DNA from: a virus
Lineage: Duplodnaviria > Caudoviricetes
Strand: one strand, 5' to 3'
Length of the DNA: 31,266 bases
IMG/VR virus record: IMGVR_UViG_3300011334_000170
Coordinates: 1 to 31,266 of that record
Shown here: positions 1 to 30,309 of the stretch, in pieces
Numbering within the stretch: the stretch's first letter is position 1
How the letters are laid out: each line of letters opens with the position of its first letter
Notes under the pieces: model-generated
Seen by the model: only the letters and a program-made list of their open reading frames with translations
Databases searched by the model: none
Told to the model about the DNA's origin: nothing
Program-made: the position numbers and the translations under genes

Positions 1-36
1 TATTGGAACACGAGATTTTCAATAAATGAGTTATAA
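1..36 (+). CDS. 3' end of an upstream cassette gene (…YWNTRFSINEL*), truncated by the window edge
   Basis: Frame 1 is open from base 1 to TAA at 34-36. The stop overlaps the TAAC that opens the first attC-like hairpin, as in the gene ending at 596. Confidence 0.5.
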   Translation, partial: YWNTRFSINEL

Positions 37-163
37 CGGTTCTCGGCTTGCTGTCAGGGCGGGAATTATAGCACAAAACTTAAATAGGATTACTAACTTT
101 TAAATAACAACAAAATGTCAAACGAAAAACAAAAACCCGCCTTGCAGCAAACCGATGTTGTGC
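31..163 (+). mobile_element. attC-like hairpin site 1
   Basis: TTATAAC (31-37), 5-nt spacer, arm TCGGCTTGCTGTCAGGGCGGG (43-63) pairing with CCCGCCTTGCAGCAAACCGA (136-155), 1 nt, then GTT (157-159). Confidence 0.75.
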
Positions 164-309
164 GCAGTTTTTTGGAAGAAATGTCTAAAAAGCACCAATG
201 TCCAATAGACCAAGTAATGGTAGGAATAGTATTTAATGAAATGCACATTTGGAGATATAACGAAGGTGCTTATGAAAAATGGAAACAGTTAGAAATTGTG
301 TCGCTCTAA
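115..309 (+). CDS. hypothetical protein, cassette 1 (64 aa)
   Basis: ORF track. ATG lies inside the hairpin-1 loop. The body is bounded by GTTGTGCGCAGTTTT (157-171) and AAAATTGCGCACAAC (308-322), a 14/15 inverted repeat. Confidence 0.75.
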   Translation: MSNEKQKPALQQTDVVRSFLEEMSKKHQCPIDQVMVGIVFNEMHIWRYNEGAYEKWKQLEIVSL

Positions 310-315
310 AATTGC

Positions 316-440
316 GCACAACGTGTGGTGGCTTGGCGAAGTTGCCGAACACAAAACTTCATTAGAATTACAAATGTTTAAATTAAGATAAAATGTCAAT
401 AGAAAACGAAAACGGCAATTTTGCCAAACCGATGTTAGTG
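316..440 (+). mobile_element. attC-like hairpin site 2
   Basis: AAC (320-322). Arm GGCTTGGCGAAGTTGCCG (330-347) pairs with CGGCAATTTTGCCAAACC (413-430). GTT at 434-436. The loop closely resembles the site-1 loop (CACAAAACTT…ATTAC…TTTAAAT…AAAATGTCAA). Confidence 0.75.
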
Positions 441-596
441 GCTGGTGCATCTGAAAAGCCAACGATGGAGAAATATGGTTATCACTCTCAAAGTGGATTT
501 GATGACCTACCAAGTGGATGGATGTTTGAAGGTGGAGAAGAAGCGTATTATGAAGCACTAAAGGAGTGGGAAGCAGTCAACGGCACTTGCCACTAA
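393..596 (+). CDS. hypothetical protein, cassette 2 (67 aa)
   Basis: ORF track. Bounded by GTTAGTGGCTGGTGC (434-448) and GCACTTGCCACTAAC (583-597), a 13/15 inverted repeat. The stop TAA is part of TAAC. Confidence 0.75.
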   Translation: MSIENENGNFAKPMLVAGASEKPTMEKYGYHSQSGFDDLPSGWMFEGGEEAYYEALKEWEAVNGTCH

Positions 597-714
597 CGTT
601 CCCTCGCTTGGCTTAGTGCCGAGTTATTAAAACAATAATTTCTAATTAAAAAATAAAACGTGATGAAAAACGATATAAACGAAAATAAGGCATTGAGCCA
701 AACGAGTGTTACAG
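591..714 (+). mobile_element. attC-like hairpin site 3
   Basis: CACTAAC (591-597), 5-nt spacer, arm CTCGCTTGGCTTAGTGCC (603-620) pairing with GGCATTGAGCCAAACGAG (689-706), 1 nt, then GTT (708-710). Confidence 0.75.
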
Positions 715-1400
715 GAAGTGCGGTTTATAAAATACTTAACTTGTACGCTTGTTTAGGTGGCAATCGTTACAAATGGGATGAAGTAGCAAAAGAAAAAGGA
801 ATTGAAATTGAAGTAACAGCCGTTGAACTAGACCCCGAAGCAGCTAGGCTATATCAAGATCGTTTTGATAAAGACATTGTTGTTATAGGTGATGCTCATC
901 AATATTTGCTTGAACATTTTAAAGAGTTTGATTTTATATGGGCTTCACCTCCTTGCCCTAGTCATTCAAGACTTGTTCAGTCTAATAAAAACAAGGAAAA
1001 TTATGATTTGCGTTATCCAGAAATGAGCTTGTATCAAGAAGTAATATTTTTAGATAACTTTTTTAAAGGAAAATACGTAGTTGAAAATGTGATACCATAT
1101 TATGAACCATTGATACCCGCAAAAAAAAGAGGTAGGCATTTATATTGGACTAATTTTTTATTGCCAACTAATATAGGAGAACGTGAAACAATAGGTATCT
1201 CTACAGCAAAAGAAGAAGTTAAAAAACTTTGTGAGTTTCACGATTATGATTTTTATAAATACAAGGGCAAACAACCAATTAATAAAATGGCTAGAAACCT
1301 TGTTGACTACGAAGCTGGAAGAACAATTTTTGAAACTGTATTAGGAATAGAGAAAAAGTCTAATATAAACCAAGTTTCTATTTTCGATACGATTACGTAG
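660..1400 (+). CDS. C5-cytosine DNA methyltransferase, cassette 3
   Basis: Motif I variant LYACLGG, AVELD, catalytic motif IV ASPPC, motif VI VENV, and RGRH. Bounded by GTTACAGGAAGTGC (708-721) and GCATTTCCTGTAAC (1400-1413). The start may be the ATG at 663. Confidence 0.85.
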   Translation: MMKNDINENKALSQTSVTGSAVYKILNLYACLGGNRYKWDEVAKEKGIEIEVTAVELDPEAARLYQDRFDKDIVVIGDAHQYLLEHFKEFDFIWASPPCPSHSRLVQSNKNKENYDLRYPEMSLYQEVIFLDNFFKGKYVVENVIPYYEPLIPAKKRGRHLYWTNFLLPTNIGERETIGISTAKEEVKKLCEFHDYDFYKYKGKQPINKMARNLVDYEAGRTIFETVLGIEKKSNINQVSIFDTIT

Positions 1401-1478
1401 CATTTCCTGTAACTCCCTACTACACGCTATTTTTACAGACCTATCTCTCTATGTGGATGGGTATAATTTAACTAAAAA

Positions 1479-1763
1479 ATGAGAAATCCAACTAAATACT
1501 GCAATGTAAACCTTAAAAATAAAAGGCATTTATTTTTTATTTCACTACTTTATAGAGTTAATTATGTAACTAAATTTAGAGGTAAAAAGATAGCTGACAT
1601 CGACGCATTAAATTATTGGTTAGAAACAAGAACGATTTATAAAAAACCTTTAATACTATTAAAGCGTAAAGAGTTAATTGTTGCAATGAGGAAATTTGAA
1701 AGCGAGGTAGTAAAGAAGAAATATGTTGACGAATTAAAATCTTTGTTGCCACTTGCAAATTAA
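1479..1763 (+). CDS. hypothetical basic protein (94 aa)
   Basis: ORF track. ATG follows an A-rich region, and a terminator lies downstream. Confidence 0.6.
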   Translation: MRNPTKYCNVNLKNKRHLFFISLLYRVNYVTKFRGKKIADIDALNYWLETRTIYKKPLILLKRKELIVAMRKFESEVVKKKYVDELKSLLPLAN

Positions 1764-2697: not shown

Positions 2698-3849
2698 TTA
2701 AAATAAATGTGTTAATCTACTTGTTTGTCCATGCTGAAAATCGTGTATAAAACCCTCAACCGCTTTAGGTGAATGTTGGTAACCATTCCTATGATGCCAA
2801 CTATCCGTTCCACTAGGAGAACGTAAAGCCTCAACACAAACACTCATATAATCTTTACTAATCTTATGGTGGAAATGGTGAATGTAAAAATACCTATGCT
2901 TACATTCTTGCCAGTCTTTACTTTCGTGCGCCATTAATAAAGCTAAATCGTTTTCCTTTGCTCCATCTCCGTGAGTAGTACCTATTAAATTGTTACCATA
3001 TTGGTAATACTTCCTATGTGATATTGAACAATCAAAAGTAACATTCATACAATCTTTAAAATGAGCCTCGATAACTTGTGCCAAAAAGAATCCATTTGTA
3101 TAATCGTGGTTACTAGGATTGAATACAACGTGAACATCTGCAACCGACATCATAATTTCAATAATATCTACATAAAGTTGTTTTGCTATTAGGAAATTCT
3201 CAAACCACATTCCATCAGTATCTTGAGGTGTTCCGCTTGTCGTTGTTCTTTTCGCATTATCGATATGCAAAATATCGTTTCCTATGACAAATAATATTTG
3301 TTCTATGCTATCTGTTGGCAGTTCGCTTAATAGTCCGTTACAACCATCTAAAACACGTTTAACCGCTATTTGATTATTATAATCTTCTCCGCTTTCAAAT
3401 GCGTTACATAACTTTCCTATGTGAATGTCAGCAGGAGAGAATACAAATAGTCTTTTCTTTACATTTTTAGAACGTTTAATCTGTGGATATTTCGGAGTGT
3501 AATCTTTTAAGTTATCAACTAACTTGGTTCGTAGTTCTTCTAAGTCTTTTTTATCTTGCTCAACGTAATTAGGATTTTTTACAAATAAAGAGGCTTCTTT
3601 ATTCTTTACCCAAAGATGCTTAACTGTTGTATTGTCAATATCTAGGCTATTTGTAGCGTTGTAAATACCCTCGTGATTGTCTAAAAGTCTGTTTAGGTTT
3701 CTCTCTAGATATTTACTAAAAGATTTTTTGTCTGGTCCATTTAGATTATTATCTATTCGCCTTATAATTTCAATCTTTTGTAATTTGTGTTCTGAATTAT
3801 TTACTATTTCTAGTATTTTATTGTCGTAAATACTCCATTTTGATAGCAT
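2698..3849 (-). CDS. calcineurin-like metallophosphoesterase
   Basis: Motifs in order: DIH, GND, SNHD, HGD, HHFH. Confidence 0.8.
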   Translation of the reverse strand: MLSKWSIYDNKILEIVNNSEHKLQKIEIIRRIDNNLNGPDKKSFSKYLERNLNRLLDNHEGIYNATNSLDIDNTTVKHLWVKNKEASLFVKNPNYVEQDKKDLEELRTKLVDNLKDYTPKYPQIKRSKNVKKRLFVFSPADIHIGKLCNAFESGEDYNNQIAVKRVLDGCNGLLSELPTDSIEQILFVIGNDILHIDNAKRTTTSGTPQDTDGMWFENFLIAKQLYVDIIEIMMSVADVHVVFNPSNHDYTNGFFLAQVIEAHFKDCMNVTFDCSISHRKYYQYGNNLIGTTHGDGAKENDLALLMAHESKDWQECKHRYFYIHHFHHKISKDYMSVCVEALRSPSGTDSWHHRNGYQHSPKAVEGFIHDFQHGQTSRLTHLF

Positions 3850-24701: not shown

Positions 24702-24949
24702 ATCTTAAATAATTTTAGCGATTGCTCGTGGTTAAACTTTTGTACAAATTTATCATTATAATCAAACTCAAATCCAAAGAAGCTATTGTCATCTGTGTAC
24801 TTGAAAATATAATACCAGTGCCAACATTCAACCTTATTAATCCATTTGCTAGGAACTTGTAAATTCTTTAAAATACCTGACAATCTATAAAGCCTGCCTA
24901 ACTTTGATGGTTGAGGTGTAGATGTTAAATTTAAGTCGGTGGGTTTCAA
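24698..24949 (-). CDS. hypothetical protein (83 aa, TTG start)
   Basis: ORF track; TTGA overlap with the upstream stop. Confidence 0.6.
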   Translation of the reverse strand: MKPTDLNLTSTPQPSKLGRLYRLSGILKNLQVPSKWINKVECWHWYYIFKYTDDNSFFGFEFDYNDKFVQKFNHEQSLKLFKI

Positions 24950-25542
24950 CTTACAAACTCTTTAAAGAATGACAATAATTTATCTTTATATCCAGCATCA
25001 GCAGCATAAGCATCAGCATAAGCATCAGCAGCAGAAGCAGCATAAGCAGCAGCATAAGCATCATCAGCAGCAGCAGCAGAAGAAGCATAAGCATAAGCAT
25101 CAGCATCAGCAGAAGCAGCATAAGCAGCAGCATAAGCAGCAGCATAAGCAGCAGCATAAGCAGCAGCATAAGCAGCAGAAGCAGAAGCAGCAGAAGCAGC
25201 ATTTTTTCTAAAAACTTTTAATTCTTCTAAAGTAATTTCACTTTTTAAATATTTTTGCGATGCTTCAATAGCTTTTCTAGGCGCATCATTATCAGGGTAT
25301 TTATTCTCATAAATAGGCAACACAACCAAAGCACATCCAATAGCAAACTCTTTTTTTTCTAAATCAGTCAATCCTATTGAATTTCTAATAAACCAAGATT
25401 TGTTTTTTAATGGTATTTCGGAATCAAGTATTTCAATAATTGAAATATTATCTTTAACCATAAAAGAACATTTGTTTAATTTTTCTTTTGAGTAACAACC
25501 CTTAAGGTTGTACATTTCTTCTTTTGTAAATTCTGTGTTCAT
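24946..25542 (-). CDS. Imm5-like protein with an Ala/Tyr low-complexity tract
   Basis: FA..CA..VL..YE..YP….PRKAIEA followed by about 70 aa of A/Y/D/S repeats. Confidence 0.65.
   Translation of the reverse strand: MNTEFTKEEMYNLKGCYSKEKLNKCSFMVKDNISIIEILDSEIPLKNKSWFIRNSIGLTDLEKKEFAIGCALVVLPIYENKYPDNDAPRKAIEASQKYLKSEITLEELKVFRKNAASAASASAAYAAAYAAAYAAAYAAAYAASADADAYAYASSAAAADDAYAAAYAASAADAYADAYAADAGYKDKLLSFFKEFVS
24994..25200. repeat. GCA-rich tandem repeat with a 12-nt unit GCAGCAGCATAA (encodes YAAA)
   Basis: About five near-consecutive copies at ~25115-25177 inside a degenerate GCA/TCA/TAA/GAA tract. Confidence 0.9.
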
Positions 25543-27949: not shown

Positions 27950-30309
27950 TTAAAACATTATATCGTTATCTTCTTCCTCTTTTATTTCTCCGCTTTTAAT
28001 AATAAACCATTGCATACCATTTGAGGTATCGCTTATGTATTCAAAGCCATTGAAAGTGCAAAACTTTTGAACCCATAAATTAAACTTCTTACGAGTGAGC
28101 CATTTTTTAAAGTCTGGGTATTCTTCCGTAAACTTTTCAAATATTGCTTTTTTGTCAAGCCTTTCATTTCTTAATACCACTTCTTCATCCTTAACAAACT
28201 CAAAGAACTCCATCGCAGTTTCAGCGATAAACTTCCGCATCTTAATATTCTTAGCATTTTGTCTTACCAATCCATTATTTAAAAATAACTGTAAACAATG
28301 AACCATATAATTATCAAACTTTTGAAAGTCTATAAGTTCCCAATCATCAAACAACTGTCTTTTAAACTCATCCTCTGGTGTTAAATCTTTACCGTAATAT
28401 TGTGCTATCTCTAACTCATATCTTCTTCTATCGTGGCTATTTCCCTCGCCACGAATAGCATAATTTGTAGATATAACTAACTTAGGACTTTCGTGTACAT
28501 TTAACTTAATAGCATCTTTATTTTTACGCTCTAAAGTCAATCCTTCCGTTACCAAACTAAACTTTTCTTCAAAGTTGAAGTTCTTATAACATCATCAAAT
28601 ACTAATATTTTAGTGTCTAAGGAAACTGTCTGATAAGGGAAAGACTTTTTACCATCGAATAGCTTACCATCAATAATAGATGTTTTTCTAATTTGGCTAA
28701 TACCTTGTACAAATACTCCTTTACCTGTTCCTCCCTCTGGATTCTCGCTAATTACCTCATCATTTAATATAATGGCTTTGTTATTAGAACGGTTTTTATA
28801 AGTTGACATCAAGTAACCTATAACACACTCGGTTGGTAATTCTGTTTCGTTGGAGATGTTTTTTATAAATCTTTGGTAGTCATTCTCAAACTCATCCATC
28901 TCAACAAAATCCCTATCTAAAATGTGGTCTTGCCAAATGTAAAAGTCAATATCAATGTAATCAATTAAATTAATAGTGTTCTTAGTAACCTCTAGCACTC
29001 CATTTTTAAAAGCAATATAAGACTTGTATCTGTCATCATTCAACATCTTTAAATCAATGCTCTCAAGCATCAATAAGAAGTTTTCAGCGAATAAGTTTTG
29101 ATATTTAGCACAATGATTCCAAACTTCAAACTCTTTCTTTTCAAGTACATAATTAAGTACAAAGTCTTTTATTATCTCAACACTTGTAATATTAACTTTG
29201 TTTGAATTGATATAAACCCAAGTAGGTTTTTGGCTGTCATTAGGGTAATGTTTTTTAAATCCATTACGCTCTAAAAAGAACTTATATTTAAGTGGATCAA
29301 CTGTTACCTTTTCCTTACCATTTTTGTCGTAGGTAATGAACCAAAATTCTTCGTGTTCTAATACTTCCTTTAGCTCATCAAAAGTATCCTCCGATATACC
29401 GTGTTTTTTTATAACTGCTTCCTTACCTCTTTTTAAATCAACTCTTACTTTATCAATCTTTTGGTAATCCTCAAAGAACTTACTATCAAAGTTTCTTTTT
29501 TTGTATGCGCTTTTAATTGTGGTGCGCATCTCTGTTTCGGTAAAATCTCCAATAACTACATTATTGTAAATATAGTTTTCAGCACTAGACTGGGTTACTC
29601 CATACTCGCAAAACATACCAGCTAAATCAAATATAAAATTATTTCGTTCTCCATCAACAAAATCCTTTTTCCAATCAAAAGACATTATCTTTTCAATTAT
29701 CTTATCTTCATCTGTAATTGGTATTAAAGGTGTCTTTTCTGATACACTATAACCTACATCAATTAAATTTGGTGCAAATTCAATAGCATCGTAATTAACA
29801 AATATATTTGGATCGTATGATTCATAACATACCCTATCAACATTTGAGCAGTTCTTATCCCAATAGTCGAAATCAAACTCCTTTTGAAATGCAGTAAAAT
29901 ATTTAGGGTGTGTTTCTTTTGTGGCTTTTGGTATTTTAACTACTCCTTTTGTACCGTTACCACTAGGGGAAGTGAATAATAGTATAAAGTGAGGATTACG
30001 CTCCAGTATCGCCCGATGCTCGAGCATAACGTCATCATTTGGGTATTTATCAAAATCTACACACATAAGTCCAGAATGATTGACTAAACCATTTCCAGTA
30101 CGCTCTGCAAACTCTCCAGCAAACAATATACAAGGAAGCGTTGACTTTATCCTATCTGCTTCTTTTTTGTTTGGTGCTGCTCTTACCTTTTTAATAATCT
30201 CGATTGACTTACCAACTTTTACACGTTGGATGATTTTTTCCAAATCTACAATGTATGGTACATCCTTAGATTCAAAAAGGTCTTTAAAAACTGAAATTTT
30301 ATATTCCAT
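27950..30309 (-). CDS. primase-helicase (BT4734/VirE-N-like primase, PriCT-like domain, P-loop), split by a one-base frameshift near 28585
   Basis: K..LP…F.G.F, CVDFD, SPSGNG.K, GERNN, GGTGKG, VFDD. The -1 frame continues KNFNFEEKFSLVTEG…STNY…RR. Confidence 0.8.

Follow-up and report, generated by a model that had tools for sequence, protein, structure and literature searches.

We analyzed a row of genes headed by DNA hairpins at the left end of the Caudoviricetes record IMGVR_UViG_3300011334_000170. The whole virus record, 31,266 nt, is the stretch of DNA that we call the window. The row lies on the plus strand, and the minus strand carries genes for terminase, portal, tape measure, endolysin and primase. 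A detector for the pattern AAC, spacer, stem and GTT found exactly three sites in the 31,266 nt and none on the other strand. The window hairpins match those of cultured Flavobacterium phages and its start regions resemble those of Bacteroidota; the host is therefore probably a Bacteroidota bacterium. The row contains the following features.

1..37, plus strand: 3' part of another cassette upstream, truncated where the contig begins, with its closing AAC at 35-37 (read from the sequence; a contig of public run X8, record 25, matches 1-38 and then diverges)
35..159, plus strand: hairpin 1, made of AAC, a 5-nt spacer, an inner stem, an A/T-rich loop with ATG 115, a translated 3' arm, a 1-nt spacer and GTT
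35..322, plus strand: cassette 1, AAC to AAC, hairpin 1 plus gene 1 (contigs of public runs X10 and X8)
115..309, plus strand: gene 1, 64 aa, function unassigned, first 15 codons supplied by the hairpin (7 homologues)
160..171, plus strand: 5' outer arm of cassette 1, complementary to 308-319 at 11/12 positions, with G.T at position 8
308..319, plus strand: 3' outer arm of cassette 1
320..436, plus strand: hairpin 2 with ATG 393 (18 contexts at 85% identity or more, with 12 different cargo starts behind it)
393..596, plus strand: gene 2, 67 aa, function unassigned, with outer arms at 437-448 and 583-594 (39 homologues)
595..710, plus strand: hairpin 3 with GTG 660 and ATG 663 (also before other cargoes in runs X7 and X10 and in locus L217)
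663..1400, plus strand: gene 3, C5 cytosine DNA methyltransferase-like, 245 aa, with outer arms at 711-722 and 1399-1410 (PF00145 from residue 22, above cut-off)
1411..1440, plus strand: terminal hairpin-less site, AAC 1411-1413 (12-13 of 17 positions shared with 6 other terminal sites)
1479..1763, plus strand: 94-aa open reading frame (ORF) in the slot of the relatives' recombinase; not a recombinase, no family match

We propose that the units of this row are mobile cassettes that run from AAC to AAC, each made of a hairpin and the gene behind it, and that they are likely moved by a small integron-like tyrosine recombinase. From sequence comparison we give this reading a probability of about 0.85. 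The initial annotation had placed the start codons of the three genes within hairpin loops, and ATG 115, 393 and 663 do lie in AAC35-GTT159, AAC320-GTT436 and AAC595-GTT710; the first hairpin begins at 35, not at 64. It had also proposed that hairpin, start codon and gene move together by exchange within AAC. Co-inheritance of hairpins and genes, indels between phage isolates and contigs from public runs all agree with that proposal.

The hairpins belong to a large family of sites with a uniform build. Because the loops are long and A/T-rich, single-fold energies differed little from those of shuffled sequences (z of -0.33 to -1.60 in five strands, +0.43 in one). Folding against shuffles was uninformative, and the hairpins were therefore judged real on family conservation. 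Pattern and protein scans yielded 402 loci, or 403 sequences with the first 6 kb of the window. Of these, 281 hold 831 sites (overlapping loci counted twice), and 7 strong sites lie on the opposite strand. The 646 distinct hairpins have a median length of 123 nt, with spacers of 5 and 1 nt in 330 and of 5 and 2 nt in 148. The first 10 inner positions pair ungapped in at least 8/10 in all 330 hairpins of the 5/1 type, under a detector that favours ungapped stems. Only hairpin 1 of the window has a one-base bulge, and it lies further in.

Each window gene is also flanked by 12-nt inverted arms directly inside GTT and AAC, which match at 11/12, 10/12 and 10/12 positions. These outer arms would pair in a circle cut at either side and are therefore silent on polarity. 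On the coding strand, 472/481 cargoes carry G.T at outer position 8, in a set selected for 10/12 matches (8/12 for the chromosomes described below). The arms are pseudo-symmetric on either side of the core. The coding strand gives the better fold in 328/412 hairpins and in 409/412 circle junctions, and it carries the longest ORF in 420/424 cargoes. The sites have a paired AAC/GTT core in an imperfect palindrome with one favoured strand, as judged by folding energy and G.T placement only. They have neither the extrahelical L-box bases nor the two-sided unpaired central spacer given for attC in the consulted sections of PMC8946536.

Two variants of the build stand apart. In the Polaribacter phage P12002L (L617), hairpins of about 200 nt at 39710-39515, 32695-32491 and 31314-31117 have a loop that contains most or all of a short annotated gene, so that the cargo lies inside the site itself. 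Loci L203 and L224 carry the same gene and a similar loop, with both stem arms changed together; the arms appear exchangeable without the loop.

Pairs of related cassettes in phage contigs indicate that a gene keeps the hairpin ahead of it. We collected 487 distinct cargo contexts and 198 pairs that aligned over 90% of their length, and scored a hairpin as kept at 85% identity over 90 nt. The upstream hairpin alone was kept in 85 pairs, the downstream hairpin alone in 0, both in 1 and neither in 112. The pairs are not independent, those with coverage below 90% or a short flank were dropped, and "both kept" is undercounted as contexts with identical cargo and both flanks had been collapsed beforehand. 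Random pairs reached the mark 18 times (upstream) and 11 times (downstream) in 3995. At cargo identities of at least 99%, 6 of 7 pairs kept only the upstream hairpin and 1 kept both; at 90% or more, the upstream hairpin was the closer one in 37/41 pairs and the downstream one in 3. The 19 clusters at this level gave the same picture, with upstream-only retention in 13, downstream-only in 0, neither in 8 and both in 1. Eight pairs found independently of hairpin anchors comprised 5 upstream-only, 0 downstream-only, 1 both and 2 neither. Homologous genes that keep the downstream hairpin and exchange the upstream one, the pattern expected if the initial annotation were wrong about polarity, were thus absent among the 198 pairs. 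One array (L220) holds the same cassette twice, at 3322 and 4052, with the same upstream hairpin and different downstream hairpins.

The joints lie at AAC. Identity between related cassettes starts and stops there. The base before AAC goes with the cargo, pairing in 480/481 cases with the base behind that cargo's GTT, and the base after AAC changes where a terminal site replaces a hairpin. The crossover is therefore confined to the triplet.

The units of the window behave in the same way. When positions 1-1800 were compared with contigs of four public runs, a contig of run X10 covered 34-322 and then diverged, and one of run X8 joined at 34 from another upstream neighbour. In run X7, gene 3 was matched from 684 to 1414 and was followed by a different terminal site; in run X8, the terminal region of the window stood behind another cargo. 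Hairpins 1 and 3 also occurred ahead of other cargoes in these contigs, and hairpin 1 has 4 relatives at 85% or more, each ahead of a different cargo. Among the 7 homologues of gene 1, the closest two share the window leader and the others have other in-frame leaders. Gene 1 has no PHROG or Pfam match, and a search of viral contigs with it found no locus. A search with the body of gene 2 found 13 loci. In the closest of them, L403, hairpin 2 is retained upstream, whereas the downstream hairpin and the upstream neighbour are not those of the window; several distant copies are free, hairpin-less genes with their own start. Within hairpin 2, window positions 323-330 (the 8 nt behind AAC) differ from every family copy, even from that ahead of the same gene in L403, and disrupt two of the pairs formed with the 3' arm. 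This looks like a local replacement just behind the crossover.

Cultured phages gain, lose and reorder the same kind of unit. We compared six Muminvirus genomes (Flavobacterium phages) whose flanks are 99.6-100% identical. Between mumin6-1 and mumin6-3, a 506-bp unit of upstream hairpin plus gene is missing between two AACs, and the downstream hairpin is kept. A 1.58-kb block of three units, AAC to AAC, separates filifjonk9-1 from mumin6-1. In tooticki6-1 the last unit is replaced, again from AAC to AAC. In filifjonk9-1 a 412-bp unit has been added at the terminal site, with its left break directly behind AAC, so that in this comparison a new unit sits at a hairpin-less AAC. Two further isolate comparisons showed no indel. 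As these are isolate genomes, metagenome chimeras do not explain the pattern. A smaller change was seen behind the hairpin at record positions 4922-4852 of mumin6-3 and mumin6-4 (L612 and L613, identical over the stretch). There the 5' outer arm differs at 4 positions from that of mumin6-1, filifjonk9-1 and tooticki6-1, and the altered arm of L612 matches its unit's own 3' arm. This amounts to a one-step re-matching, possibly by repair in a folded circle or by template switching.

Bacterial chromosomes provided a mirror control. In Christiangramia LLG6405-1 a related enzyme gene is followed by an array of about 55 sites. In the control set of 34 stretches (583 kb) from 11 Christiangramia genomes, the detector found 462 sites of mirror polarity against 7 of phage polarity; the phage-polarity sites scoring at least 30 (4/7) are sub-folds of mirror sites. 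Among 241 chromosomal cargoes, an ORF lies on the sense strand in 221, and 0/221 start before GTT. Outer position 8 is A.C in 228/241, and the other, non-coding strand folds better in 229/232. The downstream hairpin was closer in 24 of 36 chromosomal pairs and was retained in three identical duplicates (1.00 against 0.70, 0.73 and 0.92). The method therefore detects classical polarity where it is present, and the travelling side follows the asymmetry of the site. The order of the classical integron, gene then attC with crossover at G/TT, is found in the chromosomes and not in the phages. The initial annotation had called the phage arrangement the reverse of classical cassettes; it is also opposite to these chromosomal arrays. 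On these comparisons, the phage cassette is a chromosome-type cassette whose gene is oriented against the recombination polarity, so that the hairpin comes to lie at the 5' end. Arrays of 34 to more than 90 pattern matches stand behind a recombinase gene without the IntI insertion in G001 (C1:2954000-3057000), G011, G013, G017 and G022, and such arrays would probably escape integrase-based integron searches. A search of chromosomal contigs that used the recombinase alignment (2/64 parts) returned mostly Xer-like genes and is no measure of the system's chromosomal frequency.

The rows end in a site without a hairpin. Among 443 cargoes with room on both sides, 112 have no downstream hairpin and 26 have no detected upstream one, most of the latter showing a 3' arm by eye. 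The base after AAC is G in 317/331 hairpins and T or A in 87/112 terminal sites. Behind the array in nine loci, on the same strand, lies a gene for a tyrosine recombinase, either whole, cut or split; it is split or truncated in three of the nine (L258, L378 and L091), suggesting frequent decay. Starting from the enzyme gave a matching result. Of 54 viral loci with at least 1.5 kb upstream, 41 have same-strand hairpins upstream and 2 downstream. A conserved hairpin-less AAC site stands 54-71 nt ahead of the recombinase start in 53/76 viral loci, so the integron trait of a hairpin-less insertion site beside the recombinase gene is present. The terminal site of the window, 1411..1440, is attI-like and a probable insertion point.

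The phage recombinases have 266-294 aa and are not typical integron integrases. Against TIGR02249, which has a cut-off of 265, three array-linked enzymes reach 124-159 bits, split over two stretches. They have 21 residues where IntI4 (2A3V) has 64, so that about 43 residues of the IntI insertion are missing. The additional domain is described as the defining trait of integron integrases (10.1101/2022.02.06.479319, sections consulted), and as not fully conserved in an integron-like subgroup (PMC8138268, sections consulted). The phage enzymes also fall below all Xer cut-offs. Twenty of them form a clade of their own, apart from Bacteroidota Xer-like rows (SH-like approximate likelihood-ratio support, SH-aLRT, 100), in a quick tree that included two wrongly picked ORFs and is used for this clade only, not for deep branches. 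At the terminal sites of 87 arrays, the slot behind the terminal AAC, where it lacks the recombinase, often holds one of a few small protein families, including a ribbon-helix-helix-like protein (by eye) of about 60 aa in 11 loci and one of about 75 aa in 8.

Many of these genes appear to be translated from inside the recombination site. In the window, the distances from ATG 115, 393 and 663 to the G of GTT are 42, 41 and 45 nt, reading runs in frame into the cargo, and the leader peptides are those first described. The proposed L.Q..V leader motif holds for leaders 1 and 3 and fails for leader 2, where the arm is read in a different frame. The three window leaders would contribute 14-16 codons. 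Among 424 distinct cargoes with an upstream hairpin, 221 have a main frame open back to a hairpin ATG; in 172 the start lies behind GTT, and the remaining 31 lack a dominant ORF. The 221 loop-open cargoes fall into GTT phases of 100, 22 and 99, and 218 of them use hairpins of at least 105 nt. Adenine at positions -13/-12, the positions reported for F. johnsoniae (PMC6847099, sections consulted), occurs at frequencies of 0.76/0.81 before 210 in-frame loop ATGs, 0.44/0.41 before 453 other loop ATGs and 0.67/0.72 before 172 ordinary starts. Some homologues of genes 1 and 2 lack the internal methionine, and conserved residues are kept ahead of it. For gene 3, the first in-frame start codon past GTT is TTG 741, within the PF00145 methyltransferase domain, which supports a loop start; GTG 660 in the same frame is a possible alternative to ATG 663. 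These signatures strongly suggest that the loop starts are used for translation. The leaders also explain N-terminal peptides shared among unrelated phage proteins.

The frame of these fusions says little about the crossover. The initial annotation had deduced an AAC-side crossover from the in-frame leaders; the side is borne out and the argument is not. Three in-frame fusions would arise by chance 1 time in 27. In four gene families that carry unrelated hairpins, with a leader on both copies, the phase is the same in 3 and changed in 1, and the changed family has a compensating one-base indel behind GTT. The frame was thus kept or restored after GTT replacement in 4/4 families, so in-frame fusion reflects selection and is no evidence of the crossover side. 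The proposed bond between leader and gene is likewise real without being permanent. The two travel together, and the leader of hairpin 2 nevertheless stands ahead of 7 different continuations in 11 loci, with a break at GTT, which by itself points the classical way.

Several observations weigh against cassettes that always move as hairpin plus gene by a dedicated enzyme. The upstream hairpin is below 85% identity in 11/19 pairs at 95-99% cargo identity, some through loop drift and some through a clean switch at GTT. The same holds for 8/19 clusters at 90% or more, several with a clean GTT break. Replaced upstream hairpins make AAC the main, not the sole, joint. The loci were found through hairpin anchors, with 135 cargoes sampled downstream of an anchor and 85 upstream. 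In the chromosomes, the upstream hairpin was closer in 11/36 pairs, against a high background (median 0.86). The indels between Muminvirus hairpins share up to 7 nt at both ends, and slippage on short homology is possible there; the terminal-site insertion, which breaks directly behind AAC, is unlike them. About 40% of cargoes start behind GTT. Finally, there is no recombinase in the window, mumin6-1 or P12002L, although the arrays vary; here the enzyme is probably supplied in trans, by a co-infecting phage or the host.

Comparison of phages and chromosomes gave the unit boundaries, the polarity, the terminal insertion site, the link to a recombinase clade and the mirror arrays, and a mechanism can be proposed on that basis. 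In an excised circle, the two 12-nt arms of the gene would pair and extend the hairpin into a full site with outer stem, AAC/GTT, a 5-versus-1 bulge and inner stem. The predicted cleavage by the recombinase lies within AAC, on the coding strand in its folded form. One strand would be exchanged and replication would resolve the product, by analogy with integrons (PMC8946536, sections consulted). The candidate enzyme is the 266-294 aa recombinase encoded 54-71 nt behind the terminal AAC in related phages, acting in trans in the window. Long hairpins (105 nt or more) would have taken on the A-rich Bacteroidota initiation region, so that translation from the loop is predicted for about half of the cargoes. 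Less often, an exchange on the GTT side may replace the hairpin before a gene, with selection keeping or restoring the frame.

The GTT breaks could also mean a two-part system, in which hairpin (AAC to GTT) and cargo (GTT to AAC) are both exchangeable, either strand is used, and a programmed GTT exchange tries leaders and makes new cassettes. Clean GTT breaks at 95-97% cargo identity (L217/L379, L167/L184 and L135/L317), the capture of gene 2 in at least three arm types and two frames as well as free, and the pseudo-symmetry of the arms on both sides of the core speak for it. Yet 0/7 pairs at 99% identity or more had a changed upstream hairpin, no mapped difference between isolates is a GTT-side exchange, and replacements such as L203/L224, where the loop is kept and only the arms change, resemble conversion. 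We consider programmed exchange at GTT unlikely.

The suggestion in the initial annotation that the fold gates translation of the gene does not fit the position of the start codon and is, in our view, improbable. The RNA stems are stable (-36.5 to -38.8 kcal/mol at the three sites) with a coding 3' arm, and mRNA structure tunes initiation in Flavobacterium (PMC6847099, sections consulted). By folding, however, the region from -15 to +15 is largely unpaired (0.65-0.77), and the ATG lies in mostly unpaired loop, at least 18 nt ahead of the 3' arm in 186/195 cases. The footprint of an initiating ribosome ends before the 3' arm starts, and no alternative fold or ligand is in view. An ATG in an open loop fits accessibility, not gating.

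A third possibility dispenses with a site-specific enzyme and takes the hairpins as regulatory or initiation modules, with genes shuffled by homologous recombination and slippage. The window and two cultured phages have no recombinase, the better-folding strand is also the mRNA strand, and the hairpins are alike enough for short-homology events. Against this, breaks fall at AAC even between a hairpin and an unrelated terminal site, the 12-nt arms are specific to each gene and covary around a constant G.T mismatch, recombinases of a dedicated clade are encoded behind the terminal site, and in chromosomes the better-folding strand is non-coding. We regard this explanation as very unlikely. Classical polarity, in which crossover at G/TT leaves the hairpin with the upstream gene and fuses leaders to whatever lands behind, would account for near-identical hairpins ahead of unrelated genes with a break at GTT and for some near-identical genes with unrelated upstream hairpins, but it is refuted as the main route, and scarcely credible, given 0/198 downstream-only pairs, isolate indels from AAC to AAC, rows that end in a hairpin-less AAC and the classical pattern that the same method shows in chromosomes.

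Other features of the window lie outside the hairpins. A stem with a run of T at 1811-1837, directly past the 94-aa ORF, would by its sequence close the cassette transcript where it faces the minus-strand genes. At 27950-30309 on the minus strand, two adjacent ORFs match residues 1-584 and 594-792 of phrog_28855 (primase-like), indicating a split gene or a frameshift. An ORF at 24946-25542 on the minus strand contains a tract of 9-12-nt repeats (about 24990-25205), and both strands have a second open frame there.

The cassette reading has several consequences. Integron-like shuffling would occur in lytic phages with reversed polarity, and one 120-nt stretch would serve as recombination site, initiation region and coding sequence. 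An insertion held essential for folded-DNA recombination is missing from the predicted enzyme, so that either this rule or the mechanism would admit an exception. Shared N-terminal peptides would be a trap for homology searches. The cargo is rich in DNA methyltransferases; the largest cluster comprises 252 ORFs in 154 loci, 136 of them within cassettes. A set of 80 methyltransferase loci consisted mostly of free genes without hairpins. One Muminvirus methyltransferase has been linked to plating efficiency by Nilsson et al. 2020 (PMC7077304), whose consulted sections name no "integron" or "cassette". With this link, the methyltransferase cargo suggests that the system may tune escape from restriction. 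More speculatively, it is possible that phages of Bacteroidota possess a gene-capture system of their own, a sister of integrons whose recombinase acts on folded DNA despite lacking the IntI insertion, in which the hairpin is a plug-in translation start that expresses any captured frame at once behind a ready leader, and in which programmed GTT exchange makes cassettes from free genes and reshuffles N-termini. If so, cassette birth, an open question of integron biology, would be visible in cultivable phages, and methyltransferase cassettes gained or lost could shift host range. Cultured phage-host pairs exist, and polarity, enzyme and cassette birth are directly testable in them.

We compared the phage cassettes with known systems. 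A literature search found no description of reversed, translated sites, with poor coverage of subscription journals and bioRxiv supplements, and only Qi et al. 2023 touches the system. In that work (PMC9892861, sections consulted), the Polaribacter phage P12002L, which has no integrase in its genome, contributes P12002L_attC1, a hairpin of the window type ahead of a methyltransferase gene. The P12002L sites were treated as attC of "divergent directions", and P12002L_attC1 was the sole site of six without IntI1 recombination. Our detector found about ten further hairpins in this phage. The second published site, attC2, falls on the reverse strand in the region of the terminal site, at the row's 3' end. 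The sections of Qi et al. 2023 consulted mention neither the polarity nor the outer arms, the translated leaders or a phage recombinase. Bacteroidota are listed among integron hosts, without the site build of the window, in the consulted sections of PMC8618304 and 10.1101/2022.02.06.479319.

The chromosomal arrays of Christiangramia (G001 and relatives) are among the closest known systems. They share the site build, the outer arms, the mismatch at position 8, a recombinase of 35% identity and a similar short motif before GTT at the insertion site. They differ in that the hairpin follows the gene, genes start after GTT, 40-55 or more sites stand behind the recombinase gene, and the recombinases form separate clades. 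A translated site has a parallel in the gcuF1-blaOXA-28 fusion of class 1 integrons, where attC is translated in the frame of the gene behind it (PMC3375312, sections consulted). There, the reading frame of an upstream cassette happens to extend across that cassette's attC, and excision destroys the fusion; in about half of the phage cassettes, the site itself contains the start, which travels with the gene.

Like classical integrons (IntI, attI and attC, as in class 1 and Vibrio chromosomal integrons), the phage arrays are rows of mostly single-gene cassettes with imperfect hairpins and an AAC/GTT core. They share strand asymmetry, a crossover in the AAC/GTT triplet and one hairpin-less insertion site beside a tyrosine recombinase with Phage_int_SAM_4 and Phage_integrase domains. 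With three hairpins and no integrase in 31 kb, the window resembles clusters of two or more attC sites lacking integron integrases (CALINs); its sites depart from attC in their features, and the contig breaks off ahead of the row. Unlike in classical integrons, the phage hairpin heads the gene; the insertion site marks the 3' end of the row, with the same-strand recombinase gene behind it. The spacer is 5 versus 1-2 nt, a 12-bp gene-specific outer stem carries a fixed G.T, and there is no regular extrahelical base. The recombinase lacks the IntI insertion, and the site often holds the start codon. The system is thus integron-like but fails in enzyme domain, polarity and site build, and its reversed, translated sites appear new relative to the literature searched.

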